Source: Thermodesulfobacteriota bacterium (GTDB taxonomy: Bacteria; Desulfobacterota_D; UBA1144; Nemesobacterales; Nemesobacteraceae). From it: a stretch of 64,000 bases of DNA. Below, piece after piece: positions 27,935 to 64,000 of the stretch; within the stretch, counting starts at the first letter, position 1, and each line of letters starts with the position of its first letter. A program made the position numbers and the translations under genes. The stretch covers positions 489,164 through 553,163 of the forward strand of contig OZ244920.1 in NCBI GenBank assembly GCA_965221875.1, in the 5' to 3' direction. The notes under the pieces are model-generated. The model was not told the origin of the DNA, did not search any database, and was given only the letters and a program-made list of their open reading frames with translations.

Positions 27935-28002
27935 ACCTACCATCGAGAAAATCAATCAGTTAATCAATTTCTCGTAAGTAAGCCTTTTCCCCGCAAGTCC
28001 CG

Positions 28003-29729: not shown

Positions 29730-30008
29730 ATGAGGAGTAAAAGACGCAATCATTCATCGGAGTTCAAGGCGAAGGTGGCGCTAGCGGCGATAAAAGGGGA
29801 GAAGACGGTAGCAGAACTGTCCCAGCAGTTCGGAGTTCACGCAAACCAGATCAGCATCTGGAAGAAGCAGCTGCTCGCGAATGCTGGAAACGCTTTCGGG
29901 GGCGAGGGCAAGAACGCGACAGGGGAGAAGTACGTGAAGGATCTTGAGGCCAAAGTCGGTCAGTTGACCCTGGAGAATGATTTTTTATCCAAAGCGCTCG
30001 GTCGCTAG
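29730..30008 (+). CDS. IS3-family transposase OrfA
   Basis: MRSKRRNHSSEFKAKVALAAIKGEKTVAELSQQFGVHANQISIWKKQLL HTH. Confidence 0.7.
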   Translation: MRSKRRNHSSEFKAKVALAAIKGEKTVAELSQQFGVHANQISIWKKQLLANAGNAFGGEGKNATGEKYVKDLEAKVGQLTLENDFLSKALGR

Positions 30009-30046
30009 AGCGGGCGCAGCGCAAGGAACTCGTAGACCGCGGACAC

Positions 30047-34651: not shown

Positions 34652-35884
34652 ATGGCCGAAATGCTGCCGAGATGGCAGAGGAAATCTATTGAAACTGCTA
34701 TGGGGGAACGCAGGGTCCTGCTTCTGGCAGGCCCTCGCCAATGCGGCAAGACAACCCTGGTCAGGCACCTTGACGGGGAGAATGTCGAGTACCGCACTCT
34801 GGACGACAAAATATCAAGAGAGCTTGCCGACGTTGATCCCCTTGAGTTCATCAATCATGAAAAAGGAATGCTCGTAATTGATGAAGTTCAGAAAGCCCCG
34901 GATCTCCTGCCTGTCATAAAAATGGCAGTCGATGAAAACAGAAGGCCGGGACAGTTTCTGCTTGCCGGATCATCCAATGTCCGCAAATTTCCGGGCGTGA
35001 CGGAGTCTCTTGCCGGCCGCGTCGCGAAAATAAGGCTGAGAACCCTTACCGAGGGAGAAATAAGAAACACCGGAACCGGTTTTCTCGAACGGGCGTTTGA
35101 TCAGGATTTTAAATACCAGTGGGAGGGATACGGTCGCGGCGAGTTAATCGAGGCTGCGGCCAGAGGCGGCTATCCGGAAGCGGTTGGGCTCGGGGAACGC
35201 GCGCGCAGGCGATGGCACACGGATTATGTGGAATCCCTGCTTGAGAGGGACCTTGCTGAGATAGCCAGAATAAAAGACCATGACGCCATGCGTCGGCTTG
35301 TTAGGATTCTCGCCGCGTGGTCCTCAAGGTTCGTTGACCTCTCGGCCATAGGCGGCGGAATGTCCATTCAGCGCCCGACTCTTGAGTCCTACATAAATAT
35401 GCTTGAGACCATGTTTCTAGTGGAGTGCCTGCAGCCCTGGAGCGATACGGACTATGGGCGCGTCGGGAAACGGAGGAAGATTTTCATGACTGACAGCGGA
35501 CTGATTTTCTCAATGCTGCGCTTAAGCACAGACCGCATAAGGCGGGATGTCGACCAAAGCGGAAAACTTCTTGAAAATTTCGCTTTTAACGAGCTTGCGT
35601 CTCTTGTGGATGCGGGCGGCGGGCAATACGAACTTTATCATTACCGCGACCGCGAAAAACGCGAGGTTGACTTCATCATAACCCGCGACGACGGCGCGAT
35701 ACTGGGCATTGAGGTAAAAGCCTCCACGACCGTCCAGAGAAGCGACTTCAGGCATCTGAAGTGGTTCAGGGACAGGGCCGCCGGGGGAAATCCTTTTGTG
35801 GGGCTGGTGCTCTATTGCGGAAAAACTGCGGGATCATTCGGCGAGGGGCTCTGGCTGGTTCCCTTTGGAGCCATGTGGGTCTGA
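34652..35884 (+). CDS. AAA+ ATPase (AAA_14 + DUF4143 family)
   Basis: Walker A GPRQCGKTTL, Walker B LVIDEVQ; paralog of 52340-53578. Confidence 0.75.
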   Translation: MAEMLPRWQRKSIETAMGERRVLLLAGPRQCGKTTLVRHLDGENVEYRTLDDKISRELADVDPLEFINHEKGMLVIDEVQKAPDLLPVIKMAVDENRRPGQFLLAGSSNVRKFPGVTESLAGRVAKIRLRTLTEGEIRNTGTGFLERAFDQDFKYQWEGYGRGELIEAAARGGYPEAVGLGERARRRWHTDYVESLLERDLAEIARIKDHDAMRRLVRILAAWSSRFVDLSAIGGGMSIQRPTLESYINMLETMFLVECLQPWSDTDYGRVGKRRKIFMTDSGLIFSMLRLSTDRIRRDVDQSGKLLENFAFNELASLVDAGGGQYELYHYRDREKREVDFIITRDDGAILGIEVKASTTVQRSDFRHLKWFRDRAAGGNPFVGLVLYCGKTAGSFGEGLWLVPFGAMWV

Positions 35885-37280: not shown

Positions 37281-39232
<1,952 letters not shown>

Positions 39233-48563: not shown

Positions 48564-50024
48564 TTGTTTGAATTCATAAAGTACTTCTGCACCCTGCTTT
48601 ACATTATCTCCTCTGCTTTTCTCTGCATATTCGGCCTTCATCGCTACTACCTGGTACATCTTTACTCGAGGACAAAGGCGCGCCGCGTTGCGGCCCCGCA
48701 GGAACAGGGCCCCCTTCCGCGCGTCACGGTGCAGCTCCCCGTCTATAACGAGATGTACGTGACGGAGAGGCTCATACGCGCGGTCTGCGCGATCGACTAC
48801 CCGAGGGACCTGCTCGAGGTGCAGGTGCTTGACGACTCAACAGACGACACAAGCCGCATAGCGGCGGGCTGCACCGAGGAGCTCCGGGCCGCGGGGTTCG
48901 ATATAAAGCATATCTGGAGGGGGAACCGCGAGGGGTACAAGGCGGGGGCGCTTGCCGCGGGCTGCGCACAGGCAAGCGGAGAGTTCCTTGCGGTTTTCGA
49001 CGCGGACTTCGTTCCCCCCAGGGATTTTCTCCGAAGGACCGTGCCGTGCTTCGAAGATCCAGAGGTCGGAATAGTACAGACCAGGTGGGGGCACCTTAAC
49101 CGCGACTACTCCCTTCTGACCAAGGCCCAGTCGGTGCTTCTTGATGGACATTTTGTGGTGGAACAGGCCGCACGGCACTCAAACGGACTTTTTCTTAACT
49201 TCAACGGCACCGCCGGGGTGATCCGCAAGAAATGCATAGAACAGAGCGGGGGATGGCAGCACGACACCCTGACCGAGGATCTCGATCTGAGCTACAGGGC
49301 GCAGATAAACGGGTGGCGCGCGGTCTACCTGCCCGACGTCATATCGGACGCCGAGCTTCCCGTTGACATGAACGCCTTTAAGATACAGCAGCACAGATGG
49401 GTTAAGGGGGGGATCCAGACGGCGGGGAAGCTTCTGCCCTCGGTACTTGGTGACTCCCAGGTTCCGTTTAAGGTCAAGGCAGAGAGCATTTTCCACCTCC
49501 TCGGCAATTTCAGCTACCTGTTTCTGCTCGCCACGATAATTCTCATAATACCCATGAATTTCCTCTGGGAGCGGATCTGGCTTAACGACTTTTTCATAGC
49601 GAGCGTCACAGGGGTGGCGCTTGGCACTTTCGCCATAATAAGGTTCTACATACTGGCCGTAAGCGAGGCCCATGGCTCCCGGGCCCGGGAGTTCTACAAG
49701 TACATACCCGTTGCGCTAAGCGTCGGGGCGGGCATAGCGGTTAACAACGCCAAGGCCGTGCTTGAGGCGGTTCTGGGCAGGACGTCTGGTTTTGCGAGAA
49801 CGCCCAAGTACGCCGTCGTGGGCAGGAAGGACCGGTGGAGAACCTCGGCGTACGTTTCCTCAAAAGGGGTTACCACCTTTTTAGAGGTCATCCTCTCGGT
49901 TTTCTTCACGTTCCAGGTGGCGTACGTCCTCTACATGGGATTTTTCATCTGGGTTCCCTTCCTGCTGCTTATGCAGTTCGGTTTCACGTACACCGCTTTT
50001 CTCTCGATATATCACGGTTCCTGA
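48564..50024 (+). CDS. family 2 glycosyltransferase, processive membrane-embedded type (cellulose-synthase-like)
   Basis: N-terminal TM; DDS..DAD..TED..QHRWVKGG (QxxRW) motifs; C-terminal TM helices. Confidence 0.75.
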   Translation: MFEFIKYFCTLLYIISSAFLCIFGLHRYYLVHLYSRTKARRVAAPQEQGPLPRVTVQLPVYNEMYVTERLIRAVCAIDYPRDLLEVQVLDDSTDDTSRIAAGCTEELRAAGFDIKHIWRGNREGYKAGALAAGCAQASGEFLAVFDADFVPPRDFLRRTVPCFEDPEVGIVQTRWGHLNRDYSLLTKAQSVLLDGHFVVEQAARHSNGLFLNFNGTAGVIRKKCIEQSGGWQHDTLTEDLDLSYRAQINGWRAVYLPDVISDAELPVDMNAFKIQQHRWVKGGIQTAGKLLPSVLGDSQVPFKVKAESIFHLLGNFSYLFLLATIILIIPMNFLWERIWLNDFFIASVTGVALGTFAIIRFYILAVSEAHGSRAREFYKYIPVALSVGAGIAVNNAKAVLEAVLGRTSGFARTPKYAVVGRKDRWRTSAYVSSKGVTTFLEVILSVFFTFQVAYVLYMGFFIWVPFLLLMQFGFTYTAFLSIYHGS

Positions 50025-50187
50025 GAGGCTTTCGCCTCGCTTCGGGATAATAATTTTTTTAACTTTTCACAGTTTCCGAATTTCCGATGGGTTTCTTACG
50101 TTAAAAAAGCATGTATATACTCTTGACATATCCCGGCAGCCGGCTATTATGTATATATCTTAAGTATATCCTTATTTGGAGGCAGAG

Positions 50188-50418
50188 ATGGAAAGGGTGA
50201 AAGTCTTTAAGAACAATAAAAGCCAGGCGGTACGGCTTCCCAAGCCGGTTTCTTTGCCGGATACCGTAAAGGAAGTGGATATTATCCGTCTTGGACGTTC
50301 CCGCTTGATCACTCCGGCTGGAGAGGCATGGGACAGCTGGTTTGAGGGGGACGGTGTTACGGATGATTTCATGAATGAGCGTGATCAGACCGGGAGTCAG
50401 GAGAGGGAACCGTTCTGA
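50188..50418 (+). CDS. vapB: VapB antitoxin (AbrB/MazE-fold)
   Basis: MERVKVFKNNKSQAVRLPKPVSLPDTVKEVDIIRLG.. typical VapB. Confidence 0.7.
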   Translation: MERVKVFKNNKSQAVRLPKPVSLPDTVKEVDIIRLGRSRLITPAGEAWDSWFEGDGVTDDFMNERDQTGSQEREPF

Positions 50419-50819
50419 TGCTGAGGTACATGCTGGACACCAATATAGTTATCTACACTATAAAGAATAAGCCTGAGAAAATAAAAAGGGAGTTTGTCGC
50501 TCATTACGGGCAGGTATGCATATCAACCATCACCTTGATGGAGCTTGTTTATGGAGCCGAAAAGTCTGCAAACCCCAGACGCAATCTGGATGATATAGAG
50601 GGGTTTGTTGCCAGATTGGACGTGCTGTCCTATGATTACGCCGCGGCGCTTCATTCCGGTGAAATCAGGGCGGAGTTAGCCGGATCGGGCACGCCGATCG
50701 GGCATTATGACCTGATGATTGCCGGGCACGCCAGATCGCTCGGGCACATTCTGGTGACCAATAACACCCGGGAATTCAAGCGCGTGGCCGGTTTGCGCCT
50801 GGATGACTGGAGCAAATAG
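50418..50819 (+). CDS. vapC: VapC PIN-domain ribonuclease toxin
   Basis: MLRYMLDTNIVIY.. PIN domain with conserved acidic residues; start overlaps vapB stop. Confidence 0.8.
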   Translation: MLRYMLDTNIVIYTIKNKPEKIKREFVAHYGQVCISTITLMELVYGAEKSANPRRNLDDIEGFVARLDVLSYDYAAALHSGEIRAELAGSGTPIGHYDLMIAGHARSLGHILVTNNTREFKRVAGLRLDDWSK

Positions 50820-50967
50820 GCTTCTTTGTCTTCGTGGAGAGTCAGAGATCAGGCCAGCAGGCCGAAATTTCGAGGAATCGACGAATCTCTAAGGCGACAC
50901 TAATCCGACAAATCGGTTTTTCTTGTCTTGCCGGACTTCGATACGGTGGCAAGGTAATTAATTGATT

Positions 50968-52178
50968 GGGACTTATATACATAACTAGACGTATACTGTT
51001 CCTGGCCGAACGGGCCCTACTTCAGCCCGCTTCATCTCCATCCTTCCGGCCATGCGGGACTCTAAACCAAGCTTCCCACCCGCAATCGAGATGCCTCGAT
51101 GAAGGATATTTATTGCTGCGTTTACATCCCTGTCCATAACTACTCCACACTCACATCTGTGCGTCCTGACGGACAGAGACTTCTTTACCGTAGCTCCGCA
51201 ACCTGAACACTCCTGAGATGTCCCCCGGGGATCAACCTCCACCACCCTGACGCCAGCACTCTCAGCCTTCTCGTTAAGCAGTGTTATCAACTTACCCCAG
51301 TTCTGCTCATGTATGCTCCTCGCAAGTTTACTGTTGCGAACCATGTTCTTTGTCCTAAGCTTCTCCACCACAATGAAGTCGTACATCTTTACTATCTCCG
51401 CACTCAGGCGGTGAAGATAATCTCTTTCCTTGTCACTTATCCTCTGCCACTCCCTGGCAAGCAGTAAAACTGCTTTTTTCCAGTTGTTGCTTCCCTTCTT
51501 CTTGCGGGACACAGAACGCTGAAGCCGTATTATTTTACTCCTGTCTATCACTCTCTTCTCTACCGTCTCCCCGTCACTAAGCGTAAGACGCTTCGTTATC
51601 CCCATGTCTATGCCCACTGGATTGGTTATCTGTTCTGCGGCAGGAACATCATCTATTTCATACGACAGGGCCACTTCAGTGCGCAGTGCCTTCCTCGTAA
51701 TGCGTATAGCTCTCAGAAGTCCGTTCGGTGGAAGTTCACGGGATGTCTTTACTTCAATACGGGGAAGTCCCTTTATCCTGAGAACAGTCTTGTTCCCCTC
51801 TCTCTTTAACATGCTCCCGCACTGATCGTTTACCTCTATGCTTCTCCACCTGCGAGAGCTTTTAAAGCGGGGGAAGCCTCCATGGGTAAAAAACCTCTTG
51901 TACGCCTTGTCAAGCCTTGAGAGAACACCTCTAAACAGAATGGCGGATATATCTTTGAATTCCTGAATCTCAGCCCTGACCTCGGTTAGTTCCTTGCACT
52001 GATCAAAGTAGCTTCGGCTTTTGCCTGTTTTTTTGTAGCAGTCAATACGGGACTCAAGACCGGCGTTATAGAGTTCAGCGGACAGTCTCAGCACCTGATC
52101 AAGCCTGCTGTGCCCAGCTCTGGATATCTTGGTACGACACTTATAAGTCCTTATCATGGCTATGTCATTATACCCAGC
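50968..52178 (-). mobile_element. ~1.21-kb tnpB-carrying unit bounded by sequences related to the TIR-cassette family (boundaries tentative)
   Basis: GGGACTTATATACATAACTAG at 50968-50988 directly abuts the tnpB stop; degenerate related sequence TATGTCATTATACCC at 52161-52175 abuts the start. Confidence 0.4.
50985..52157 (-). CDS. tnpB: TnpB (OrfB_IS605 / IS1341-type RNA-guided nuclease-like transposon protein)
   Basis: 390 aa; RuvC-like motifs (GIDMGI, E, D) and C-terminal Zn-ribbon CSGCGATVKK..HRCECGVVMDRDVNAAINI. Confidence 0.85.
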   Translation of the reverse strand: MIRTYKCRTKISRAGHSRLDQVLRLSAELYNAGLESRIDCYKKTGKSRSYFDQCKELTEVRAEIQEFKDISAILFRGVLSRLDKAYKRFFTHGGFPRFKSSRRWRSIEVNDQCGSMLKREGNKTVLRIKGLPRIEVKTSRELPPNGLLRAIRITRKALRTEVALSYEIDDVPAAEQITNPVGIDMGITKRLTLSDGETVEKRVIDRSKIIRLQRSVSRKKKGSNNWKKAVLLLAREWQRISDKERDYLHRLSAEIVKMYDFIVVEKLRTKNMVRNSKLARSIHEQNWGKLITLLNEKAESAGVRVVEVDPRGTSQECSGCGATVKKSLSVRTHRCECGVVMDRDVNAAINILHRGISIAGGKLGLESRMAGRMEMKRAEVGPVRPGTVYV

Positions 52179-52339
52179 ACCCTTCTATATGACTACTCAA
52201 CCCTGGCACTGTCAACTTTCCTACATAGTTCCCATAATTTGCAAGGATAACGGAACTTCATATTTCTTATCAAGCGGCAAGAGAAGTTCTGTACGCCATG
52301 CCGCCATGCATTTTACTCTTTCAAGGTGAGCCAGCTGGC

Positions 52340-53578
52340 TTACGACCGGTTCCAGACCGTTCCGAAAGGAACGGCCCACAGCCCGTCACCCATGGAACCC
52401 GCGAGTTCTCCCGAATAGAGTACGATCCCGGTGAATTTTCTGTCGCGCGCGATGTTTTTCTTAAACCAGCTGAGGCTCCTGAAATCGCTCGTTCCGATGG
52501 CCGAGCCCGCCTTGATCTCAATCCCGAGTAGCGCCGAGTCCTCCCTTTCGATCAGGAAGTCAATCTCGCGCTTTTCGCGGTCACGGTAATGAAACAGGCT
52601 GTATTTTCCGGCATTGGCGTCCGCCTGGGCGGCTATTTCGTTGAACATGAAGGTTTCAATCAGTTTGCCCGAGCGGTCCGCGTCCATGCGAACCTGCTGC
52701 CTGTCCCAGTCGAGAATCGAAGACATAAGTCCCGAATCGGTCATAAACAGCTTGGGGCGGCTCCCCACCCGCGCGTAGTCCGTGCGTTTCCACGGCCTTA
52801 TGCGCTCGACCACATACAGGGTTTCCAAGGCGTTTATATATGTCTCGACCGTGGAGCGGACGATGGAAAGTCCGGCGGCTATGGATGAGATGTCCATGAA
52901 TTTGCCCGACCATGCTGCCAGGGCATATATCAGTTCGCTCATGGCATCGCGTCGCTGGATACGCCCGAGATCCCTCAGGTCGCGCTCAAGAATCGCGTCC
53001 ACATAGTCCCGATGCCATAGTCTTCGTTCTGCGTCTCCAAGCAGAATAGCTTCCGGGAAGCCGCCCCCAAAAGAGATGTTCAGCATGGCGTCACGACCGT
53101 AAGCGCGGTCGGGATGCCCGAAGTCCTGTCCGAAAGCCCGGTCAAGGAAATCTGGAACCACCCCCAAAATCTCTCCCTGCGTGAGCGGACGCAGCCGTAC
53201 CTTTCTTATACGTCCGGCGAGAGATTCCCGCACCCCTGGAGAAGACTGTATGTCGGCCGAACCTGTCAGCAGGTATTGTCCGGGCCTTGTATCTTCATCT
53301 ACATTTATCTTGATCGCGGAAAGCAGATCGGGGGCACGCTGGACTTCGTCGATGATGAGGGTTTTTCCCGAGTGCCTAACGAAACCTCGGGGGTCGGTTT
53401 CGGCAATCTGCCGTACGGCCGGATCATCTAAAGTGCGGTAGGCGACATCATGTGAAACCAGTTCCTTGGCAAGAGTAGTCTTGCCGCATTGCCGCGCTCC
53501 GCAGAGCAACAGCACGCGGCGCGCTTCGAGAGCTTTTTCCAAAGTGTTCCGCTGCCAGCGGACATAAGAACGTGACAT
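52340..53578 (-). CDS. AAA+ ATPase (AAA_14 + DUF4143), paralog of 34652-35884
   Basis: GARQCGKTTL Walker A; ~45% identity to the other copy. Confidence 0.75.
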   Translation of the reverse strand: MSRSYVRWQRNTLEKALEARRVLLLCGARQCGKTTLAKELVSHDVAYRTLDDPAVRQIAETDPRGFVRHSGKTLIIDEVQRAPDLLSAIKINVDEDTRPGQYLLTGSADIQSSPGVRESLAGRIRKVRLRPLTQGEILGVVPDFLDRAFGQDFGHPDRAYGRDAMLNISFGGGFPEAILLGDAERRLWHRDYVDAILERDLRDLGRIQRRDAMSELIYALAAWSGKFMDISSIAAGLSIVRSTVETYINALETLYVVERIRPWKRTDYARVGSRPKLFMTDSGLMSSILDWDRQQVRMDADRSGKLIETFMFNEIAAQADANAGKYSLFHYRDREKREIDFLIEREDSALLGIEIKAGSAIGTSDFRSLSWFKKNIARDRKFTGIVLYSGELAGSMGDGLWAVPFGTVWNRS

Positions 53579-53610
53579 GATCCTAAACTCGCTGTATTGT
53601 TATTTCCGTA

Positions 53611-53679
53611 TCCGCGTTTTTGCAAAAATCGCATCCGCGTTTTTATAGAAATTATACCCGCGTTTTTATAGAAAACAAT
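53611..53679. promoter_or_regulatory. three 23-bp direct repeats (iteron-like) upstream of the minus-strand DUF4143 ATPase gene
   Basis: atccgcgtttttgcaaaaatcgc / atccgcgtttttatagaaattat / acccgcgtttttatagaaaacaa. Confidence 0.4.
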
Positions 53680-53849
53680 GTTCCCAAGTCGTATTATCCG
53701 GATCCGTCGTCTTTTTCCTGCTGCGCCCTGCTGCTCTCGATAGACTTTCTGATTTCAGACATTCCCTGTTCCCGGTAGGCCTCGTCCGATTTAGCGTTTT
53801 CAAGGCGCTCCCGCACCCCTCTGGTCGAGCGCCGCAGATCTTCCCCGCC

Positions 53850-55560
53850 CTAGCGTATCTCGCCCCGTCCCGCCCCGAAGTCTTCCGCGGTCTTCGTCTC
53901 TTCGGTTCCGATTCTCTCCTGGGACCGCTCCCGCGCCTGGGCTACCCGTTCCCTGACCTCGGTGGAGCCCTCGTTTATCGAGCCCTGAGTTTGCTCGATT
54001 CCCGCCCCGCCCGCCCCCGCGGCGGACTTTCTGTATTCCCCGAAGGACTGTTCCGCGTCGACCTCGAATCTGCGGACGTTGCCGAGGCCGTAGCCGTCGG
54101 CGGGTATCGCGGCGACCGATTCTCTGGTTTTCCTTCCCCCGCCGACAAGTTCCGAGAGGCCCGTGACCCTGTGTATCGATCCGGAGACGGCTTCCGCTTC
54201 CTCGGTATCGTATCTTCCGTCGCGAAGGTCGGTAAGCCCCCTGGCCACGTAGCTGTCCGAATAGCCTTGCCCCCTCATGTCGGCAAACACCGTCTGGGTG
54301 TACTCCCTCTCAAGACCCGCGCCGAAGGAACTCTCCCCCGAGAGCACTTCTGAGTAGGCTTTTGCCCTCTCCCTCTGGGAGGAGTAGTCCCGCGGTCGCC
54401 CCCGTAGTCTTGTCCACCTCGATGGGCCCGTATCCCTCGGCGGAACTCTCGCCGTCCGCGGTCGTCGCAAGGCAGCGCTCCATGTCGGCGAGCATGGCCA
54501 TGCGCGAGGCCACTTCGAGAAAATCCGTGTTCTGCTCCGTCTGCGTATCGAAGCAGTCATCCCCCGAGGCGCAGCGGATTTCCCCGTCGCACTCATACGT
54601 GACGCTTTTTTCCCGGCAGAGGCTTACGCTTTTCTGGCAGTCGTAGGCGTTTTCCTGGATAAGGCATACCCCGAGGTTCCTCCCCGGCGGGTCAGGAAAC
54701 TCGGGATGCTCGCGGAACCGCATGACGCAGCGCGCCCCGGTCTGGTGGCAGCCATCGGCGCGCAGCTGAGGGCAGTCGGGGTCTTCCACCAGGGGGCTCG
54801 CGCAGAGGTAGGTGTATTCCCTGTCTGTGCAGACGGTTTCTCCATCCGGGGTCTCGGTGCTCTGAAGGCAGCGGTTGCTGAAGGTTTCGCAGTTTCCGGC
54901 CGCTTTGTAGCCCCCGCAGCCGTCTTCGGTTTCGATGTGGATTTCGTATGTGGTTTCGGTGTCCGTGGGCGAGGCTCTCCGCCGGGATTCGATACCAAGG
55001 GGGACCACGGTAACGGTAACGGTCTTTTTCACGTTGCAGTAATGTCTGCTGAGCGTCGCCTGTTCGTGGCACTTCTTTGGTTCGTTCCAGAAGTTCTCCG
55101 CGTACTCGGTGCACACCTCCTGTTTCTCGCATGAGGACAAGGGGGCCTCGATCGCATCCTTGGAGCTTGCGATCATGGGGTCCGTTTCAGGGTCTACGGT
55201 GAACGCGGGGCGCTGCGCGGAGCTTTGCCTGAGGAATCCGGGAGCATCCGAGGTGGCCGGGTTCCCGCCCTGTATGGCGCCCTCCGCCTCCGTTTTCATT
55301 CCCCCGGGATTCCCGGTCCACCGCGCCCCCTCGCTTCTGAGTTCCTCGAGGGTCTCTGTACCGTAGCCCGGAAGCGTTTCTGTTTCAACTGCTGACGGCA
55401 TCAGGGCTTGCGAGTGGCGAGACAGCATTTCAGTCCCGTGGAGATGTCCTTCCCGGAGGCCCGCCTCGAAATCCTCCCCGGCGCCGGGCGCCGGCACAAG
55501 CAGGAGACTAATTGTCACTAAAGCCGCTTTTTTCAAGGCGCCTTCTAAACACCCCGGCAT
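53850..55560 (-). pseudogene. traN: F-type T4SS mating-pair stabilisation protein TraN-like, Cys-rich, apparently frameshifted near 54310-54400
   Basis: 416-aa ORF with signal peptide and >20 Cys in C-x-C-rich arrangement, positioned after trbC as in the F tra operon; continues in another frame (53850-54596). Confidence 0.55.
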
Positions 55561-56214
55561 TTGCGTCCTCCTTTTCCATGAGCCCGAGAGCGTAGGGAAG
55601 CGATACGTCCCCGGAAACCTTTACGTGGGTAAGCCCCTCGCAGTCTGTGCCCGGCAGGTAGCCGTAGGTAAGCACAAGCTGCGGCACCGCCCCGACCGAA
55701 AAGCATTCGAAAAGAACGGGGTCTATCCAGACCTCCGCCCCGGTCTTCCCGATCAAGCCTGATATCCGCGAGGCGGTTTCCCCGATATCTTCTCCCGAAA
55801 GTCCCCGAAGAACCATCACCGCGCCCCCGGCCGCGCTCTCCCGCGCCGCCTCCCTGAGAGAGGAACGCGGCATCGAGAATGAGAAAAAGTAAAAGAGCTC
55901 GGGTGTCCCGTCCTCTGTGCTTGCGTTTTTTTCGGGGAAAGCCCGAGAGGGCGACGGTTTTACCGAAAGCAGTTCCATTACTTCTTCGGTTTCCTTCGCT
56001 CTGGGGGAGTTTGTTTCAGAAAGTGTCTTCTCCGCTCCCGCAATGTCGGGCGAGAGCAGTTCTCCGAGCAGTTCCCTCGCGCGGGAGATATCCGCTTCGC
56101 CGGGTTCGATCCTTATTTCCCCGAGCGAAACGGGATTCTCTTCGGGTGAAGCGGCAACTCCCGAGGCAACGAGCACAGCCGCGATCAGAGCAGGCAGCAG
56201 TCTTTTTTTCTCCA
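55508..56214 (-). CDS. trbC: F-type conjugative pilus assembly protein TrbC
   Basis: LFYFFSFSMP, VMVLRGL, VWIDPVLF..AVPQLVL, GDVSLPYALGLM closely parallel F-plasmid TrbC; signal peptide; probable start MEKKRLL. Confidence 0.8.
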
Positions 56215-57174
56215 TAGCACCCATACCCAGTCCTCTCCCTGCGTGGGATACCACTTGCCGGGGGCCCAGCGCGCAGTAGTCCTTCCTATCGGGAACGCTT
56301 GCGTGTTCTTCGGAAAGGCGAGCTGAAGCTTGTACTGGTCTTTCACTATGACCCTGTGGGGCCGGGGCGCGCACAGGGAACCCTCTCCCGTGGTCTTAAA
56401 AGCCAGAAGTTCGTTATGCAGCTTCGCGAGCAGCTTCACGGCCGAAAGCGCGTAGACGGCCGGGAGGTCTCCCGTCGCCCCGTTGTTTCCCGTGTGGGGG
56501 TAGACGCTCCCCCACGACCCGGCGCACCAGAAAAGCTCGTTAAGCGCAAAGCCCCCCGCGGCGGCCACGGCGTCCGCGGCGCACGAGGCCTGCGCCACGG
56601 GGTTTGCCACGAGCGCTATTTCGGGGTGGAGCAGAAAAGAGAGTTCGTCGTTGCTCCAGAGGGGATCAAACGCCGTCATGTATGCGAGGTCGAATCCTCC
56701 CCGGGTCATGCACCCGAAACTTGAAAAAAGGCTCAGCACGGAGAACACAGGGTAAATAAAGTGGTGGACGTGAAGAAATGAGGTCCTGTCCCCACGCTGT
56801 CCGCCTCCCTCTCCGTATGCCCCAGTCATGGCGAAGGATGGAAGGGGAAGCTTACTGCCCCCGAACGAAGGGAAACACCCTGGGTGCCTTACGACCTCGA
56901 TCAGCTTAACCGGCTCCCAGAAGGAAACCTTTATGCCGACCCTGGGGACCGGCGACCCGCAGAAACAGAGCGGGAAATGGCTTACGGTTTGGGTTCCCTT
57001 TCCGGGCGTTACCGCCACTCCCCCTATCTTTATCGGGAACATCGCCCTCCAGTCAACGTCCGTGAGCGGGTTAAAAAACCTGCCGCCGCACTTGGGCGAC
57101 GCCACGGCCTCCCTTGCGGGACCGGTGAACAGGGCGGCGAGCAGAAATGCGAAGAGTATCCTTTTTCCGTGCAT
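56185..57174 (-). CDS. traU: F-type conjugative pilus assembly protein TraU
   Basis: CGGRFFNPLTDVDW, NPVAQASCAADAVAAA, LFWCAGSWGSVYP, WRKKDCC align with F TraU motifs (CEGRFVNPITD.., NPIAQGACAADAIA, LFWCAGSQGSMYP, WRKRNC). Confidence 0.9.
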   Translation of the reverse strand: MHGKRILFAFLLAALFTGPAREAVASPKCGGRFFNPLTDVDWRAMFPIKIGGVAVTPGKGTQTVSHFPLCFCGSPVPRVGIKVSFWEPVKLIEVVRHPGCFPSFGGSKLPLPSFAMTGAYGEGGGQRGDRTSFLHVHHFIYPVFSVLSLFSSFGCMTRGGFDLAYMTAFDPLWSNDELSFLLHPEIALVANPVAQASCAADAVAAAGGFALNELFWCAGSWGSVYPHTGNNGATGDLPAVYALSAVKLLAKLHNELLAFKTTGEGSLCAPRPHRVIVKDQYKLQLAFPKNTQAFPIGRTTARWAPGKWYPTQGEDWVWVLWRKKDCCLL

Positions 57175-57277
57175 TTAAATAACAATGTATTACAAAAAGG
57201 AGAGTAAGGCAAGCAGAATCCGCCTGGGCGACGAGGATTCACTCTGGCTTGAGTCTATGATTTGCGGGAAGTTCTTT

Positions 57278-59404
57278 TTATTTGCCGTCGCTGCGATACT
57301 TGCGGGAGAGGAGGGGCAGCAGGGCGGCTGTGCCCAGAAGCAGGCGCGCAAGCTCAGTCTTCGCGTGACCCGCTCTTTTGCCCGCGGCGATTGAGCACCC
57401 TCCTCCACCAGAGGAGTCCCCGCTTCCCGGCGACGGGCGTTTTTCTTCCGGAGGCTCCACCGAGGGCGGTTTTTCCTCTTCCGGAGGCTCCTCCACGGGC
57501 GGTGACGACGGCTCGGGGTCTGGTGTCGGTGTCGGATTCGGGGTGGGTGTTGGTGTCGGATTCGGGGCAGGTGCCGGAGGTCTTGTCGGCGGCGGCTGTT
57601 CATCATCCCTTATGGTTCCAGTTGCACGACTTCGCCTGATCTGAGCGTTTTGCGGATTCAGAAGCTCAACGATGAATGTTTCAGTTCCTTCCCGGGTTGA
57701 ATCATCCGTCAGGGACACACTGACAGTCTTCTGCGTTTCGCATGGGGCAAAGGTGATCGGCGAAGGCCGCCCGCCTGTGTAATCGGAACCTTCTTCTGCC
57801 GTTCTGTCCGTTATTGAGTATTCAACGGTTACTGACTGATCATCCCGGGGAGAGGCAAGGTTTACGGTGAATTCAATACTGCCGTCTCCTTCTCCGGCGA
57901 CTGAGTCTTCAATTGAAAGCCTCGGGGCAGGATGGTTCTCAAGGGAGAGCGTTTTGGGAACGGGTTCAAATCCGCTGTAGAACCTGTCGTTGCTCTGCGC
58001 CGGGCCTATACGTATTTCGTAGTTTCCTACCCCGTCGCAGCTTCCGTCATCAACTCCCCTCACCGTCACTTCCCGCGGAGTGCTCCAGCTCGAAGGGGTG
58101 AATGTAACTACGCTCGAGACCTCACCCTCCGAAGGGGTATCGCTTGTCAGGGGTATTGTGATGTTTCCAGAGGGTTTTGACTCAAGTTTTATCTCGAATT
58201 TCGCAGTCCCGCCGCTCTCGGTCGTCACAAGCTGCTGTGACAATGGTCTTACTGAGATACCCGTTGGCATGCAGTCCGGGGCAAGTCCGCTTACGCTCCA
58301 GCCTATATCGCTCAGGATGCCGAGCGAGAGATCCATGTTTCTCGGGGACGGGGCGAAGGCTTCCATGGTATCTCCGGCGGAAGAAAAGACGTGGGAGACG
58401 GATGAGGTGCTGTCAAAAGACGAGGGAGCGTGGAGAAGCGGTTTTCCGTCATCTGATTTTGCGGAAGGGTGCGTAAGCTCCGCCATCTTCACCCCGTAGC
58501 TGCAGTTCCCGCTACGCCCGTATGTGCCCTCCCAGAGAAGTCCTGTTTCAGATGTCATCGCCGCCTCCCGTTGCGCCCGGGTGATGTCCGGAAAAGATGC
58601 GTCTTCTGCCTCCGAGTAAAGCTGCTCGTCGTAAACTGACCGCGAAACTATATTGACATCGCCTGAGAAAGGTATGCCGCCACACACCGTTCCGCTTACC
58701 ATCAGAGTTCTTGGAGGAAATGCGCCGTCACCTTCTATTGTAGAGAGGAACCCGATCCCGTGCATGATCTCATGGATTACGAGCTGGATGAAGTCAACTC
58801 TGTTTGAGGGATCAGTTCCGGTGATCCCGTAGTAATAGGGAACGCATTTGCTGAGCCGAATACGTATGTCGTCATTCTGTCCGTTAATATCCGTGTTCCC
58901 TGGTATAGCTTCGAAAAGGGCGTAAGGGTAAGCCGTTTGAAGCGACGGGTCGCCTGTCTGCATCGGTGTGAGCAAAGAGCAGTCAAACTGTATCCTAAGA
59001 TTATAGGCGTAACCGGTAGGCCCGGCGAAACCGACAGTGGTGAGTGACGGAAGCGGATTGTTGCAGTGACCCGGCATAAGTAGATCCTCCTGACCGTCAA
59101 AAAACACGAATTCGGCTCTTATCCTTATGGTGCTTTGATTGCCGAGCCTTCCCTCAAGGATGGAAATCGCGTGTCGAAAGGCGTTTTTCCTGGCCTCTCC
59201 CAGAGTCTGGGCGTTATTTCCACGTGAGGAAAGAAGATTTCTTTGTTCCTGCGAAAGAGGGGTCGGATCGTTAAACCCTTCGTTTAAGGCGTCTGTGTAC
59301 GTTACATCAATCGTTACCGAAGCGCCCGGGGGCGTCGCCGCAAACAGCGCGGTGAGCATAAGGAGAATTATGAGGGGGGGGGCCATCGGGCCTAGTGATC
59401 GCAT
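57278..59404 (-). CDS. secreted zinc metalloprotease (HExxH metzincin-like) with Calx-beta domains, Pro/Thr linker and C-terminal GGGGCS-TM-basic sorting signal
   Basis: 708 aa; signal peptide; HEIMHGIGF; Calx-beta-like segments (..TVEYSITDRTAEEGSDYTGG..ETFIVELLNP); PTPTPTPNPTPTP linker; C-terminus GGGGCSIAAG..LLLGTAALLPLLSRKYR. Confidence 0.65.
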   Translation of the reverse strand: MRSLGPMAPPLIILLMLTALFAATPPGASVTIDVTYTDALNEGFNDPTPLSQEQRNLLSSRGNNAQTLGEARKNAFRHAISILEGRLGNQSTIRIRAEFVFFDGQEDLLMPGHCNNPLPSLTTVGFAGPTGYAYNLRIQFDCSLLTPMQTGDPSLQTAYPYALFEAIPGNTDINGQNDDIRIRLSKCVPYYYGITGTDPSNRVDFIQLVIHEIMHGIGFLSTIEGDGAFPPRTLMVSGTVCGGIPFSGDVNIVSRSVYDEQLYSEAEDASFPDITRAQREAAMTSETGLLWEGTYGRSGNCSYGVKMAELTHPSAKSDDGKPLLHAPSSFDSTSSVSHVFSSAGDTMEAFAPSPRNMDLSLGILSDIGWSVSGLAPDCMPTGISVRPLSQQLVTTESGGTAKFEIKLESKPSGNITIPLTSDTPSEGEVSSVVTFTPSSWSTPREVTVRGVDDGSCDGVGNYEIRIGPAQSNDRFYSGFEPVPKTLSLENHPAPRLSIEDSVAGEGDGSIEFTVNLASPRDDQSVTVEYSITDRTAEEGSDYTGGRPSPITFAPCETQKTVSVSLTDDSTREGTETFIVELLNPQNAQIRRSRATGTIRDDEQPPPTRPPAPAPNPTPTPTPNPTPTPDPEPSSPPVEEPPEEEKPPSVEPPEEKRPSPGSGDSSGGGGCSIAAGKRAGHAKTELARLLLGTAALLPLLSRKYRSDGK

Positions 59405-59769
59405 TCTAAATGGGGCTTGCCGTCCTCATCGAACCGCACTTGCGTGTGGACTCCGTGAGACTCGGGCATGTCGACAACTATCACGTAATCTCCGTTTCCA
59501 AGCTCCACCAGCCTGCCCTCAAGCGGGGCTTGGGAGCTCTGTTTTTCCGGGGCGCGGCCTTGCGGTAGGGATCGCTCCCCGGGCCTCTCATCCTCAATGC
59601 CGAGGTCAAGCCACTGCTCGCGGGTAAGTATCTCTCCGGTGTCCGGATGTATGAAGATTTTAACTCCCGCGCCTTCGGGGGAGTCGGCGCGCGTGTCGGC
59701 GGCGAGGGCTCCCGCTGGGCAGAGAAAGAAAAAAAGCGCAACAGCCATAAAAAGCATCTTCATCTTCAT
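59392..59769 (-). CDS. small secreted hypothetical protein
   Basis: MKMKMLFMAVALFFFLCPAGALA signal peptide; overlaps the metalloprotease start. Confidence 0.35.
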   Translation of the reverse strand: MKMKMLFMAVALFFFLCPAGALAADTRADSPEGAGVKIFIHPDTGEILTREQWLDLGIEDERPGERSLPQGRAPEKQSSQAPLEGRLVELGNGDYVIVVDMPESHGVHTQVRFDEDGKPHLECDH

Positions 59770-59888
59770 CTTAATTATAAACCAATCCGGACCCGAAAGA
59801 AATCCTGCTGCCCGCTTGGCGGGAGAAAAGTATGCTGAGTATACAATATGGTGGCTGAAAAAAGGTGATAGTGCGGAACAAAAAAAGA

Positions 59889-60512
59889 TCATTTTAGAAC
59901 CATTTCCCGCACTTTGAGTTTCCTGCCCTCCTGCTCTACAAGCGACGGCACCCTCTCGACCCCGAGCCGCCTGAGCATAAAAGGAGTTGCCTTGCACACT
60001 GCCTGGTTCGCACGCAGCGAAGCTTCCCGGACATCGCCATCCGTAAGCAGCAGAATCAGTTTTCCCGCCGCACCGCCCGTTTTCTCAAGTGCTTTTTCTA
60101 CCTGGTACTCTCTCAGCACCAGGATGTTTTTTGAAAGCGATACGTGATCAAGCGGATTTACTGCGCCCGCGGGGAAGATCATTTTCCCCGTGTGGTCGTA
60201 GAGCGGATTTTGTACGTTCACCGAAGGGTCTACATAACGCACCCGCTCTTTCGCAGCTGAAGGGACGTCGAGGGAAACAAGAGAGTGCCGCGCGTAGGAT
60301 TCCTTAAGTTTTCTCTCCATGCTTTCCCGAAACGCCTGCAAGTCAATTTCCCCGGTCTTTCTCCGGACATAGGAAAGCATGTCCTCTTCCCTTATTTCGT
60401 AGAGGCGCCCGTGAACTCCGAGATCCTTACCCGAAGCCCGGGCCGGCGCCGGGGAGAACTGGATAAAAAATACCGAGGCTAGAACAAGGGAAACCCACGC
60501 CCGACTATCCAT
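59889..60512 (-). CDS. traW: F-type conjugative pilus assembly protein TraW (copy 1)
   Basis: GKDLGVHGRLYEIREEDML.., RVRYVDPSVNV, ATPFMLRRLGVERVPSLV parallel F TraW (AADLGTWGDLWPVKEPDML, SRLFDPSVRL, LCQRLGIDQVPARV). Confidence 0.8.
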   Translation of the reverse strand: MDSRAWVSLVLASVFFIQFSPAPARASGKDLGVHGRLYEIREEDMLSYVRRKTGEIDLQAFRESMERKLKESYARHSLVSLDVPSAAKERVRYVDPSVNVQNPLYDHTGKMIFPAGAVNPLDHVSLSKNILVLREYQVEKALEKTGGAAGKLILLLTDGDVREASLRANQAVCKATPFMLRRLGVERVPSLVEQEGRKLKVREMVLK

Positions 60513-60752
60513 GATTTTCTTACAAACCGTTACGCCTCTGCAGTTTTATGCAACAGCCTTTCCAGTGGTTAATTCAGCCGAATAAAATAAATAACCGGTT
60601 TGCTAGGCATGAAGTCTCCCTAAGTGTGTTTGTGGGGATTATGCCCAGCCAAGAAAAGAATTCCCGGTCGGAAGTATTAACTCTTACAGGCTAAAGGTCA
60701 GGCGTGTTTTCTGTAGCTTTGAGACACGAGTATGGTATTCAAAATATCACGG

Positions 60753-61271
60753 TTATAAAGTTTCTTTATCAAGCAATTTCTGTACTTCTACTTTGACTTT
60801 TTCTTCGAGCTTGTCCAGATCAATGCGTTCTTGTTTAACAGCTGTTGCCAAGAGTTTAGCTAGAGCTTTTTTTGTTAAATAAGTGTAACCATCCGCCTTA
60901 ATTTCGGTAGAGATGCGGGAGGCGATTTTCCCGAGGCGTACATAATCAAGCCGGTACACATCAACATGTTGCTTGACGAGATCCTCAACAGGTGTTCGCC
61001 CGTCAGTATCTTTCCATGTTTGACCGTCTTCCTGCAATTTATCATTGGCAATACAAATAAGATCGAGTCTTTCAATGGAGTTACCTGCCGCTACTATAGC
61101 CAAGGCCACCTCTTCAATGTTTTCTCTGGAATCCGATTTACATTTCCAAAAGGATAAAGAATTTCCTTTCGTGCGAAGATCCACAGTTACAGCATCGGCT
61201 GGTATCTCCTCACTAGATAATCCTTGCTTGAGTCCCCACTTTGCGCGTGTAATCTTGCGGATCAGAAACAT
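60753..61271 (-). CDS. hypothetical protein (cassette gene C), lower GC
   Basis: 172-aa ORF in tight operon spacing with the two upstream genes; no recognised domain. Confidence 0.45.
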   Translation of the reverse strand: MFLIRKITRAKWGLKQGLSSEEIPADAVTVDLRTKGNSLSFWKCKSDSRENIEEVALAIVAAGNSIERLDLICIANDKLQEDGQTWKDTDGRTPVEDLVKQHVDVYRLDYVRLGKIASRISTEIKADGYTYLTKKALAKLLATAVKQERIDLDKLEEKVKVEVQKLLDKETL

Positions 61272-61274
61272 GGG

Positions 61275-62057
61275 TTATTCTCCCAAGTCGTTGATTACGT
61301 CCAAGATGTACTCACGAAGCCACGATTCACTCTCGTGATGCGATTTGAGAATGCTTACTAGACCTTGATCACCCCACGATTCTGCTGCCTGCACAGCGGC
61401 GTCCCTAATTTCCACATTGTCAACAGTCAGGCCTCGGCGAACGAGTTCAGCACGCCATGAGTATGTTCCCAGATTCGTCTGACGTCCAAGGCAGCGCAGT
61501 ACTGATGCAGCGAAACTCGGACGCTCTATGTTTAGAGAAAAATCCTTAAACCAGTCAAAAATTGGCTGATTTTCCGAGAACTGCAGAGCTTTTTTAATGA
61601 TTTGTTCCGCTGGATGGTCCATTCCGTTTTCAAAAGGGTCAGCTTCAAAGGCTGCATGTAAGTTGTACAAAAGTTGCGCTTGCCCCGATTCCACAAAAGA
61701 AGACTTCTTTACAGTTGTTTGCCGAAAGTATTTTACATCGCCAAGTGCGGAGAAAAGCTCCTGGCCGAGCCACGCACTCCGCCATACACTGGTTTTATAT
61801 TCTGTTAAGTATAGATCATAGTTAAGTCCCTCAACCGCCTCTCGCAACCGCACGGCATCAGAAGAGGCTGCGAGCGAGTTTTTTCCGAAGACGACCCAGT
61901 TGATGATATTTGAAAAAGTCATAAGTGAATCTTTCACTATGACGAACTGAGTTGGTACATCAACATGTGGTGCTATTGATTGGTCCACCCAGTTTGGGGC
62001 ATACGCGACTAGGCCCGAAGCTGTGGAGGGCATGGGTAAGTGGCCTTTAATTTGCAT
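61275..62057 (-). CDS. hypothetical protein (cassette gene B), lower GC
   Basis: 260-aa ORF overlapping gene A stop by 11 nt; no recognised domain. Confidence 0.45.
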   Translation of the reverse strand: MQIKGHLPMPSTASGLVAYAPNWVDQSIAPHVDVPTQFVIVKDSLMTFSNIINWVVFGKNSLAASSDAVRLREAVEGLNYDLYLTEYKTSVWRSAWLGQELFSALGDVKYFRQTTVKKSSFVESGQAQLLYNLHAAFEADPFENGMDHPAEQIIKKALQFSENQPIFDWFKDFSLNIERPSFAASVLRCLGRQTNLGTYSWRAELVRRGLTVDNVEIRDAAVQAAESWGDQGLVSILKSHHESESWLREYILDVINDLGE

Positions 62058-62817
62058 TAAAGAGCTCCCTTGCTTTATCTGTTATTACACTTTCAAATGC
62101 ATCTCTTTCGCGAATACGCAAATCCTGGGTTTTTTTCAGTGCTTCGTCCAGAGCGACCGGCTCAGCGGTTTCCCATATTACATCCAGGTCTAGAAGAAAA
62201 CCTATATGGTCTGTTTGTGCACCGGCCAAGCCTTGGGATAAAACAAGATGAACGCCGTCTTCGTAAGCATAATCAACGCGGCTCATGAAGTTGCTCAAAC
62301 GGTCTGGTAATCCGTTAACGACTGGCAAGGCACACTTTAGATATTCTTCTACTTTCACGTTTTTTTCAGGGACAACAATTTTGTTTATGTACCGAATGCC
62401 GATTCGGCGCACGCCAACCGGTTTCGATACACTCTCGTATGCTTTAAGTGCGGTTGCAATTCTCGGTTTGAATTCGTCCCATCCACTAGCTTCGGGATTA
62501 GATGGATCTTGATAAGGGCGTAGCATGTGGATACTGAGTACATCCTGTCCAACTCCAACCATCCTTTTGCCATCCTTGGTGACAAGCTGGACTTTTGCAA
62601 AGCCTTCACGGTAACGAAGGTTGGGAGAACCACCTTTTTGCGTATCTAGTTCTACCTCGACGACTTTTCCCTGTTGAGGTTTACCTGTATATTTGTTGCC
62701 CAATTTAGCTTGGAGTTTGCCGGGAACGGTGAGATCCCAGTCTCGTCCCGGTTCGAAGCGAAATTCACATAGTGCTTCTTCTATAGGTGGGTTTTTATAA
62801 CGCCGTCGCTTGCTCAT
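62047..62817 (-). CDS. hypothetical protein (cassette gene A); possibly TIGR04255-like family
   Basis: 256 aa; N-terminus KNPPIEEALCEFRF resembles my recollection of TIGR04255-family N-termini; AT-rich promoter region upstream. Confidence 0.45.
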   Translation of the reverse strand: MSKRRRYKNPPIEEALCEFRFEPGRDWDLTVPGKLQAKLGNKYTGKPQQGKVVEVELDTQKGGSPNLRYREGFAKVQLVTKDGKRMVGVGQDVLSIHMLRPYQDPSNPEASGWDEFKPRIATALKAYESVSKPVGVRRIGIRYINKIVVPEKNVKVEEYLKCALPVVNGLPDRLSNFMSRVDYAYEDGVHLVLSQGLAGAQTDHIGFLLDLDVIWETAEPVALDEALKKTQDLRIRERDAFESVITDKARELFNAN

Positions 62818-63365
62818 AAATGTCTTCCTTCAAAAGTTTTGTGTAGAAATTTACCACATCCACTAGTCTGCACTACTCCAAGGCAGTTTCTGGATTCGTG
62901 TTGGCCACGTAATTAAGTTTTTGCACTCAGAAGCACGAAGGAACATTTCCTTTATTTAGAGGTGCGCGCATGTTTAGCCGGGTTTCCGGCGAAAATGTCT
63001 CTTTTTGCTAAAAACTCAAAAAAGAAAAAGATTGTCGACACCTTTTTTTTGCTGATGGCAAGAAGTTTTTTCTGTGGAAAGAGGAGAGGTGCCTGCTTGT
63101 CGTTCCTGCGTCTTGAATTCTCATTTTTTCTTTTTGAAAAGATCACGAAAATTTTCAAGATTCTCTGTACGAACCCTCACAATATCGGGCGAGCAACTTT
63201 TTTTCGCTAGGGATTATCAAGCAATCTATATGCTTAAATATATACATTGATTTTTTTTAGACAAGTGCAAGGAGTACTTGAAGATCTAAGCGACCTTAAG
63301 AGGTTGTTAGGGAAATTCTATGATTAAGCTTGTTTTATCGCTAACACATAAACAAAGTCACAGCA

Positions 63366-63989
63366 TTATTCTAAAAATATTTCTTTTATCATGAGTTTCT
63401 TGCCCTCCTGCGTTACAAGCGACGGCACTTTTTCAACTTGAAGCCTCTTGAGCATGAAAGGACTTGCCTTGTATACGATCCGACCCGCAAGCGAGGAAAC
63501 TCTTCGGATATTACCGTCGGTGAGCAGCAGAATCGGTTTTTCACCTCTTTTGTTCGTTTCATCAAGCGCTCTTTTCACCTGGTCCTCTCTCAGTATCAGG
63601 ATGCTTTTTGAAAGCGGCACGTGATCAAGCGGATTTACTGTGCCCGCGGGGAAAATCATTTTCCCCGTGTGGTCGTAGAGCGGATTCCGCACATTCACCG
63701 AAGGGTCGACGTAACGCACCCGCTCTTCCGTGGCCGAGGGTACGTCGAGGGAAACCAAAGAGTGCTTCGAGTAGGATTCCTCGAGTTTTCTCTCCATGCT
63801 TTCCCGAAGCGCCGCCATTGAGATTTCTCCTGCCTCTCTCCTGACATAGGAAAGCATGTCCTCTTCCTTTATCTCGTAGAGTCGCCCGTGAACCCCGAGG
63901 TCTTTCCCCGAAGCCTGGGCCGCCGCCGGGGAGAACTGGATAAAAAAGACCGAGGCTAGAACAAGGGAAACCCACGCCCGACTATCCAT
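63366..63989 (-). CDS. traW: F-type conjugative pilus assembly protein TraW (copy 2, diverged paralog)
   Basis: 207 aa, ~80% identical to copy 1 (MDSRAWVSLVLASVFFIQFSPA..); gene continues to the window edge context. Confidence 0.8.
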   Translation of the reverse strand: MDSRAWVSLVLASVFFIQFSPAAAQASGKDLGVHGRLYEIKEEDMLSYVRREAGEISMAALRESMERKLEESYSKHSLVSLDVPSATEERVRYVDPSVNVRNPLYDHTGKMIFPAGTVNPLDHVPLSKSILILREDQVKRALDETNKRGEKPILLLTDGNIRRVSSLAGRIVYKASPFMLKRLQVEKVPSLVTQEGKKLMIKEIFLE

Positions 63990-64000
63990 GATTTTCTTAC

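Follow-up and report, generated by a model that had tools for sequence, protein, structure and literature searches.

We examined a stretch of 64,000 nucleotides (nt) of contig OZ244920.1 from a Thermodesulfobacteriota bacterium (hereafter the window), the upper end of which carries a run of conjugation genes of the F plasmid type. The window is chromosomal, with MutS (14010-16613) and GroEL (37592-39232) encoded inside it. Its tra genes are all on the minus strand, follow the order known from F and are transcribed toward lower coordinates. An earlier note on this DNA had identified two traW copies, traU and trbC in F order, and matches to TIGR02743, PF06834 and TIGR02742 bear this out; the note had also described the genes as an orphan set. 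We consider it likely that the flagged genes are instead the distal half (traW to traG) of a chromosomally integrated F-type (MPF-F) conjugative-transfer island that is eroding by deletion, with the proximal half past base 64000. The tra features of the window are listed below (aa, amino acids; ORF, open reading frame).

63956..64000, minus strand: 3' end (14 codons and a TAG stop) of an S26 signal-peptidase-like tra gene, which overlaps the traW start and extends beyond the window
63366..63989, minus strand: traW copy A, 207 aa, intact (TIGR02743, E=3.6e-29)
59889..60528, minus strand: repeat with traW copy B (ORF 60512..59889), 207 aa, intact (TIGR02743, E=1.1e-26)
56185..57174, minus strand: traU, 329 aa, intact (PF06834, E=1.4e-96)
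55508..56224, minus strand: trbC, 238 aa counted from M51 of a 288-aa ORF, intact (TIGR02742, 83.1 bits against a cutoff of 66.45; PF09673, E=1.1e-20)
54310..55560, minus strand: traN pseudogene, with codons 1-391 TraN-homologous, then 25 out-of-frame codons to a stop
54387..54392, minus strand: deletion junction with 6 nt of microhomology (CGGGAC), at which 5,065 bp of the related locus L017 (6512-11576) are missing
53694..54392, minus strand: traG 3' remnant of ~230 final codons, interrupted in frame by a premature stop at 53852-53850

The TraU alignment covers profile positions 1-305 of 306 in PF06834, and the protein is 88-92% identical to Dadabacteria homologues and ~42% identical to annotated TraU proteins of conjugative plasmids. 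Both TraW copies align over their full length to TIGR02743 but score below its curated cutoff of 174.75. TrbC exceeds the cutoffs of its Pfam and its NCBIfam model alike, and the start of its gene was placed by tblastn alignment.

To place these genes in context, we used TraW copy A as the query in a scan of one genome per GTDB species, which returned 12 loci. All 12 are from Dadabacteria metagenome-assembled genomes (MAGs; NCBI label Thermodesulfobacteriota), several of them complete chromosomes of 1.5-2.0 Mb, and their TraW proteins are at most 86% identical to copy A. Within 10 kb upstream of traW, 11 of the 12 loci carry the colinear order traD-HD477-orf137-traA-L-E-K-B-V-C-trbI-S26-traW. 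The pilin TraA of the relatives matches NF041281 above cutoff (78.9 bits), and their coupling protein is of the TraD type, with SXT_TraD (TIGR03743) as the best model at a below-cutoff score (E=2.9e-42). An F-type island is thus widespread in Dadabacteria, and most relatives hold a complete one.

The edge of the window falls inside this arrangement. The last 45 nt (64000..63956) encode VRKSWIVGRGFPLF followed by a stop. In locus L004 the same residues end the S26 peptidase whose gene overlaps the start of traW; the window stretch is identical to L004 9990-10034 but for one synonymous base, and the L004 counterpart is the end of a 164-aa Peptidase_S26 (PF10502) ORF. Since traW comes after traC-trbI in F-type systems and the operon is on the minus strand, the proximal tra genes are expected above 64000. 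Judged from this edge sequence and from the relatives, the genes for the coupling protein, traA, traL-E-K-B-V, traC, trbI and S26 very probably lie directly past base 64000; no TraC match was found anywhere in the 64-kb window. Because the operon is cut at the edge, with the 3' end of the preceding S26 gene still visible, the orphan look comes for the most part from the position of the window's end, and the description of the set as an orphan does not stand against 11 of 12 relatives with proximal genes. The earlier remark that VirB4, pilin and coupling-protein genes are missing from within 10 kb holds for the window, but it is uninformative, as such genes belong beyond base 64000.

Between the coupling-protein gene and the pilin gene, every intact island carries a conserved 477-aa HD-domain protein (L004 1177-2610, and the same position in 11 loci). 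We did not call this protein a relaxase: it matches only generic HD/Cas3-HD models, and its plasmid matches are annotated only as "HD domain-containing protein".

The deletion between traN and traG

The closest TraU homologue with genomic context (P0001, 92% identity) is carried by locus L017, where the order is traW, one cargo gene, a small ORF, traU, trbC, traN (576 aa), traF, traH and traG (999 aa). The window and L017 share ~86% nucleotide identity in both the tra genes and the flank, and blastn aligns them in two blocks: window 57213..54387 with L017 3685..6511 (86.4%), and window 54392..52323 with L017 11577..13640 (86.3%). Relative to L017, traF and traH are gone entirely, as are the 3' third of traN and the 5' ~77% of traG.

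The remnants on both sides of the junction agree with this comparison. A TraN-like ORF is present, as had been reported (PF06986, 35.5 bits, above cutoff), but it matches profile positions 26-125 of 240 only and is a truncated pseudogene retaining ~391 of 576 codons; the Cys-rich C-terminal third of the intact 576-aa L017 orthologue is missing. On the far side, tblastn aligned the traG remnant to TraG aa 752-977 of 982. The remnant is 76% identical to the C-terminus of L017 TraG, and its stop codon stands where L017 has a Glu codon. Anywhere in the 64 kb, TraG is represented by its last ~23% only, with the internal stop, and tblastn with the L001 and L017 proteins gave no match to TraF or TraH. 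A 248-aa ORF at 54596..53850 was rejected as a gene, its first ~65-75 residues being an alternative frame of traN and the rest traG.

The CGGGAC shared by both sides is the signature that an illegitimate, microhomology-mediated deletion would leave. In the sequence of events that we propose, a 5.07-kb deletion of this kind removed traF and traH and left the final ~230 traG codons attached, in the wrong frame, to traN codon ~391; the traG remnant later gained its stop codon, and an IS605-type element inserted beside the island.

Pairwise Nei-Gojobori estimates of the ratio of nonsynonymous to synonymous divergence (dN/dS) were used to ask how the surviving genes have evolved. For traU the ratio is 0.15-0.19 in pairs that include the window and 0.07-0.10 in pairs of intact islands, at similar dS. 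traU therefore appears to be under relaxed constraint, which fits a recent loss of function. The ratio is slightly elevated in the traG remnant as well (0.18-0.19 versus 0.15), and so slight a rise suggests a deletion that is young on the scale of the divergence from L017.

In the F plasmid, pilus extension depends on TraF, mutations in TraH affect extension as well as retraction, and mating pairs are stabilised by TraN and TraG (PMC7555446). Given these roles of the lost or truncated proteins, we infer that the window island would by itself be without a working pilus or mating junction.

The cargo site, the second traW and the genes before traU

Between the traW copies lie three genes that were absent from the earlier note's description, and two further genes separate traW copy B from traU.

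62047..62817, minus strand: cargo gene 1, TIGR04255-family, 256 aa (134 bits against a cutoff of 30)
61275..62057, minus strand: cargo gene 2, 260 aa, no Pfam, NCBIfam or PADLOC match, 69% identical to its counterpart in locus L003
60753..61271, minus strand: cargo gene 3, 172 aa, no family match, 86% identical to its L003 counterpart
59392..59769, minus strand: small secreted protein, 125 aa, signal peptide MKMKMLFMAVALFFFLCPAGALAA, a lineage-specific neighbour in the tra operon
57278..59404, minus strand: putative Calx-beta/HExxH surface protein, 708 aa (Calx-beta, E=2.8e-17, and an HExxH motif)

The three-gene cargo module (62817..60753) is also found in L003, at 84.5% nucleotide identity, and its G+C content is 0.455, compared with 0.55-0.62 in the tra genes. 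PADLOC returned no match for any of the three cargo genes, nor for the small ORF or the Calx-beta protein; only the flanking DUF4143 ATPase matched. By this search, none of the three cargo proteins falls into a known defence family.

Comparison of the relatives points to the interval after traW as the island's variable cargo site, rather than to the position just before traU at which the Calx-beta/HExxH gene stands. In relatives, traW and the small ORF are some 2 kb to over 8 kb apart. In L001 (4011-9791) and L016 (1-5566) the site is filled with restriction-modification genes, which include DNA methylases, NgoFVII or MamI-type endonucleases and Vsr; in L017 and L018 it holds a single gene of 453-462 aa; and in L004 (11521-12288), L013 (~11530-12243) and L015 (~11548-12240) it holds a distant TIGR04255-family gene, found on either strand and ~22-23% identical to the window copy at 62047-62817. 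The post-traW site behaves as a defence or cargo hotspot, and the recurrence of TIGR04255-family genes suggests a functional link with it.

The two traW copies differ in their divergence from L017. Copy A is 85.5% identical to the L004 TraW protein, and its nucleotide identity to L017 (85.4%) equals the divergence of the rest of the island. Copy B, at 81.0% nucleotide identity to L017, stands further from that locus than other parts of the island do. The copies are 74.9% identical to each other as proteins, and their homology runs from ~16 nt upstream of the ATG to the stop codon, with the first ~90 nt nearly identical. The segment comprising copy B, the small ORF and the Calx-beta gene is without a close L017 counterpart, and high identity returns just upstream of traU. 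The gap between cargo gene 3 and copy B measures 240 nt (60513-60752), ~205 nt of which have no counterpart in L003. Most likely the second traW was brought in by recombination, with a segment that came from a second, related island. A further contrast lies within the distal genes: dS against L017 is 0.73 for the traG remnant (53694-54392) and 0.31-0.37 for traU, trbC and traN (54393-57213), which suggests mosaic recombination in addition to the segment with copy B.

The Calx-beta gene had been taken for a metalloprotease inserted between traW and traU, together with a small secreted ORF. That part of the earlier note does not survive comparison, as the Calx-beta protein and the small ORF stand upstream of traU in at least seven related loci. 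Homologues of the 708-aa protein occupy the same position in L003, L004, L009, L010, L012, L014 and L016. Of the 14 loci with traU, 11 (all except L001, L002 and L004) encode a ~137-aa homologue of the small ORF upstream of it; this homologue comes directly before traU where there is no Calx-beta gene and otherwise just before that gene. It is also present in L011, where traU was not found, and in L012 and L014, where traU lies beyond the fetched stretch. With the window ORF as the query, L004 gave a match as well, 42% identical and upstream of the L004 Calx-beta gene. The two genes are conserved, lineage-specific companions of the tra operon upstream of traU and no insertion peculiar to this genome. 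A small secreted ORF before the 708-aa gene had been correctly noticed, and its real extent is 59769..59392; the protein had no Pfam, NCBIfam or PADLOC match.

The 708-aa protein consists of a signal peptide, a ~375-aa HExxH domain, a linker or immunoglobulin (Ig)-like region, a Calx-beta domain (aa ~498-601), a Pro-rich linker, and a C-terminal GGGGC-SIA motif with a transmembrane segment and a basic tail. It had been described as a zinc metalloprotease with Calx-beta domains. Both the HExxH motif and Calx-beta are there, but the latter is a single domain (PF03160, 63.3 bits against a cutoff of 27, residues 498-601), and the protease assignment comes from the motif and from a sub-threshold match to the NF038122 metalloprotease (29 bits against a cutoff of 80). 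A PDB sequence search matched the Calx-beta domain only, to structures of the calcium-binding domains (CBD) of Na/Ca exchangers (E=4e-9). For the HExxH domain there was no Pfam match even at E<5 and no PDB sequence or family-profile match, and in a Foldseek search of the PDB with an AF2 model of it (pLDDT 77.6, pTM 0.80) the best hit, at E=1.2, was not significant.

The family defined by the ~375-residue N-domain has 30 members among 5.8 billion clustered proteins, none with a Pfam domain in that region. The Calx-beta homologues at related loci are 785-1,144 aa where the length is known and ~50% identical to the window copy over the N-domain. An alignment of 26 family members shows an invariant H211-E212-x-x-H215-G216-x-G218-F219 (HExxHGxGF), together with H338, E348, D366 and W369. 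Also conserved is the C-terminal tail, in which GGGGC(A/S)xA precedes a hydrophobic helix and then basic residues. The middle varies, with Pro-rich linkers and between 0 and about 3 units of the Calx-beta or Ig-like kind. Among curated sorting-signal models, the tail scored best with JDVT-CTERM, at an insignificant 12.9 bits (E=0.076) against a cutoff of 27. On this build the family would be one of cell-surface-anchored proteins. The invariant motif and the sub-threshold family match make a zinc peptidase plausible, and the 708-aa protein is probably a surface-anchored adhesin or peptidase.

Flanking genes and chromosomal neighbourhood

The flank below the island is shared with L017. After traG, L017 continues with genes for a DUF4143/AAA_14 ATPase, a PIN-domain protein, a protein of 76 aa and a glycosyltransferase of 486 aa, which is the same flank as in the window at 53578..48564. 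Two features of this flank are listed here.

52340..53578, minus strand: DUF4143/AAA_14 ATPase, 412 aa (PF13635 and PF13173; PADLOC PDC-S01, E=9.5e-137), which follows traG in L017 too
50825..52323, minus strand: putative IS200/IS605-type insertion of ~1.5 kb with a 390-aa tnpB (52157..50985), absent from L017

PDC-S01 is a candidate defence family in PADLOC, and a second DUF4143/AAA_14 paralogue in the window (34652-35884) is 54% identical to the one at 52340-53578. From our own reading of its translation, we take the ORF at 52157..50985 to be TnpB/OrfB. At the site of this element, L017 joins the AAA gene to the PIN gene by ~115 bp. We searched for an attachment site; no tRNA genes were found in the window and no Rfam families in 44-64 kb. 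No tyrosine or serine recombinase adjoins the island within the window, and the left end of the island falls outside it.

Insertion sequence (IS) elements of at least six transposase families are present in the window, a load that fits ongoing erosion. Their density is very high at 7667-12853 and 21959-32306, and the types seen are two DDE_Tnp_1, an IS3-type (HTH_Tnp_1 and rve), two IS630-type DDE_3, IS1595, an IS21 IstB together with a Mu-like transposase, and a further ORF with an rve integrase core. One of these elements appears to interrupt the RTX-repeat proteins encoded at 9546-11639 and 13091-13738. Also among IS elements, at 32698-34302, is a 534-aa protein with Schlafen AlbA_2, HATPase_c_4 and a Fic-like C-terminal domain, which may be a defence or regulatory gene.

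At the opposite end of the window, two adjoining genes on the minus strand (354-6369) encode eukaryote-like secreted proteins: a 587-aa animal haem peroxidase (PF03098, E=1e-148) and a protein of 1,439 aa that combines Spondin_N, Ig, CBM_4_9 and leucine-rich repeats. Secreted proteins of this kind are typical of animal (sponge) symbionts, and they hint at a host-associated lifestyle of the organism.

Known systems, alternative readings and meaning

The Dadabacteria island resembles the F plasmid and F-like plasmids in carrying trbI, traW, traU, trbC, traN, traF, traH and traG in the same order, and the relatives of the window also have traA, traL-E-K-B-V-C and a TraD-type coupling protein. Unlike these plasmids, the island is chromosomal, has an S26 gene between trbI and traW and a cargo site after traW, and carries two lineage-specific genes (small secreted and Calx-beta/HExxH) before traU; the window copy differs further in lacking traF and traH, in retaining only fragments of traN and traG, and in having traW doubled.

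Integrative and conjugative elements (ICEs) of the SXT/R391 type have the order traC-trhF-traW-traU-traN … traF-traH-traG and cargo hotspots at fixed intergenic sites. The Dadabacteria island shares with them an S26-family peptidase gene between traC and traW, an SXT_TraD-like coupling protein and fixed-site cargo. However, its post-traW cargo position is not known as an SXT hotspot, trbC is separate, sequence identity is low, and no MOBH relaxase or integrase was recognised in the 10 kb before traW.

Chromosomal F-type ICEs that range from intact to heavily degraded are described for Orientia and Rickettsia (the Rickettsiales amplified genetic element, RAGE; PMC10732058), and an F-like tra island for Protochlamydia amoebophila (PMC548262). 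The Dadabacteria case is like these in that a chromosomal F-type tra island sits in a small, IS-rich, apparently host-associated genome, in copies from intact to eroded and with piggy-backing cargo. It is unlike them in belonging to a different phylum, in being apparently single-copy rather than present in dozens, and in carrying restriction-modification, TIGR04255-family and Calx-beta genes as cargo rather than ankyrin or tetratricopeptide repeat (TPR) effectors. A full-text search found no paper on type IV secretion or conjugation in Dadabacteria within the library covered; the island as a family seems undescribed, though its kind is well known.

The Dadabacteria loci themselves form an erosion gradient. 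L017 is intact, L013 and L014 have possible frameshifts in S26 and traC, and the window has the 5-kb deletion. The most eroded is L011 (OZ241855.1, 683938-704483), which retains a 5'-truncated traW (aa 23-207) and the small ORF only; neither traC nor traU nor any other tra gene is present within ±10 kb.

Several points weigh against reading the locus as the decaying half of a conjugative island. In this genome the proximal tra genes are read from 45 nt and the relatives only. Even in relatives (L004 examined), the 10 kb upstream of traW yielded no recognisable relaxase or integrase, so that "conjugative" would be a label taken only from the T4SS (type IV secretion system) and the coupling protein. 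Six genes (both traW copies, the small ORF, the Calx-beta gene, traU and trbC) are intact, and dN/dS overall is well below 1, which means either that the deletion is recent or that these genes are still under some selection. Finally, a second intact island elsewhere in the genome could provide traF, traH and traG in trans.

On another reading, the island of these small-genome, apparently sponge- or host-associated Dadabacteria would be no transient ICE but an apparatus that is inherited vertically at one constant place in the chromosome, present as it is in 11 of 12 genomes at species level. The Calx-beta/HExxH protein and its small periplasmic partner would then be a new, lineage-specific adhesion or peptidase module of the F-type T4SS, and the surviving traW, small ORF, Calx-beta gene, traU and trbC might keep a pilus-independent surface role. 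We regard this proposal as unlikely.

A working island complemented in trans, with the functions of traF, traH, traG and traN supplied by a second intact copy, is in our view quite improbable. Two diverged traW alleles in one locus do imply that two related elements met in this lineage, and degraded F-type ICEs in multiple copies alongside intact ones are known for the Orientia RAGE (PMC10732058). However, there is no second tra set in the 64 kb, in the genome scan each relative with a complete chromosome yielded a single TraW locus, and these genomes are small, at 1.5-2.0 Mb.

The earlier note had left open whether the locus is part of an ICE, a cluster in decay or a module put to another use. 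Its nature as a distal tra part and the 5,065-bp deletion support the first two options. The third, a true orphan in which traW, traU, trbC and the Calx-beta/HExxH protein are kept for a role other than conjugation, for example in the envelope or in host interaction, we judge very unlikely. It would agree with six intact ORFs beside two pseudogenes, with dN/dS still below 0.5 in traU, trbC and traW, with a Calx-beta family that is confined to the lineage and always accompanies traU, and with an apparently symbiont-like host whose IS-rich genome encodes eukaryote-like proteins. However, the S26 end at the window edge and the full proximal operon in 11 of 12 relatives speak for a longer operon, the orthologous L017 has a complete distal one, and a single recent deletion has left a decaying remnant rather than a tidy, kept subset, with constraint on traU relaxed and not renewed.

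That the traW duplication or the deletion, or both, came from chimeric metagenome assembly of co-occurring strains is highly improbable. In favour of it, the source is apparently uncultured, since all relatives are MAGs, the nearly identical first ~90 nt of the traW copies could mislead an assembler, and exact-DNA scans of JGI metagenome contigs found neither the deletion junction nor the junction between cargo and traW copy B. Against it, a 6-nt microhomology is far too short for a mis-join, the traG remnant has its own nonsense mutation as in a real pseudogene, and 60513-60752 is unique sequence with no switch between two known haplotypes.

On the reading that we favour, that of an eroding F-type island, the window locus is an ordinary decaying mobile element. 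Its apparent subset of an orphan secretion system is a product of the window edge and a recent deletion, which makes it a cautionary case. For the organisms, the comparison indicates that uncultured Dadabacteria with genomes of 1.5-2 Mb commonly carry a complete chromosomal F-type transfer island, and that this island family has a defined cargo site after traW and two lineage-restricted accessory genes before traU. Alongside the undescribed island family, the residual novelty lies in the HExxH/Calx-beta protein family, with its 30 members, no Pfam model and no structural match.

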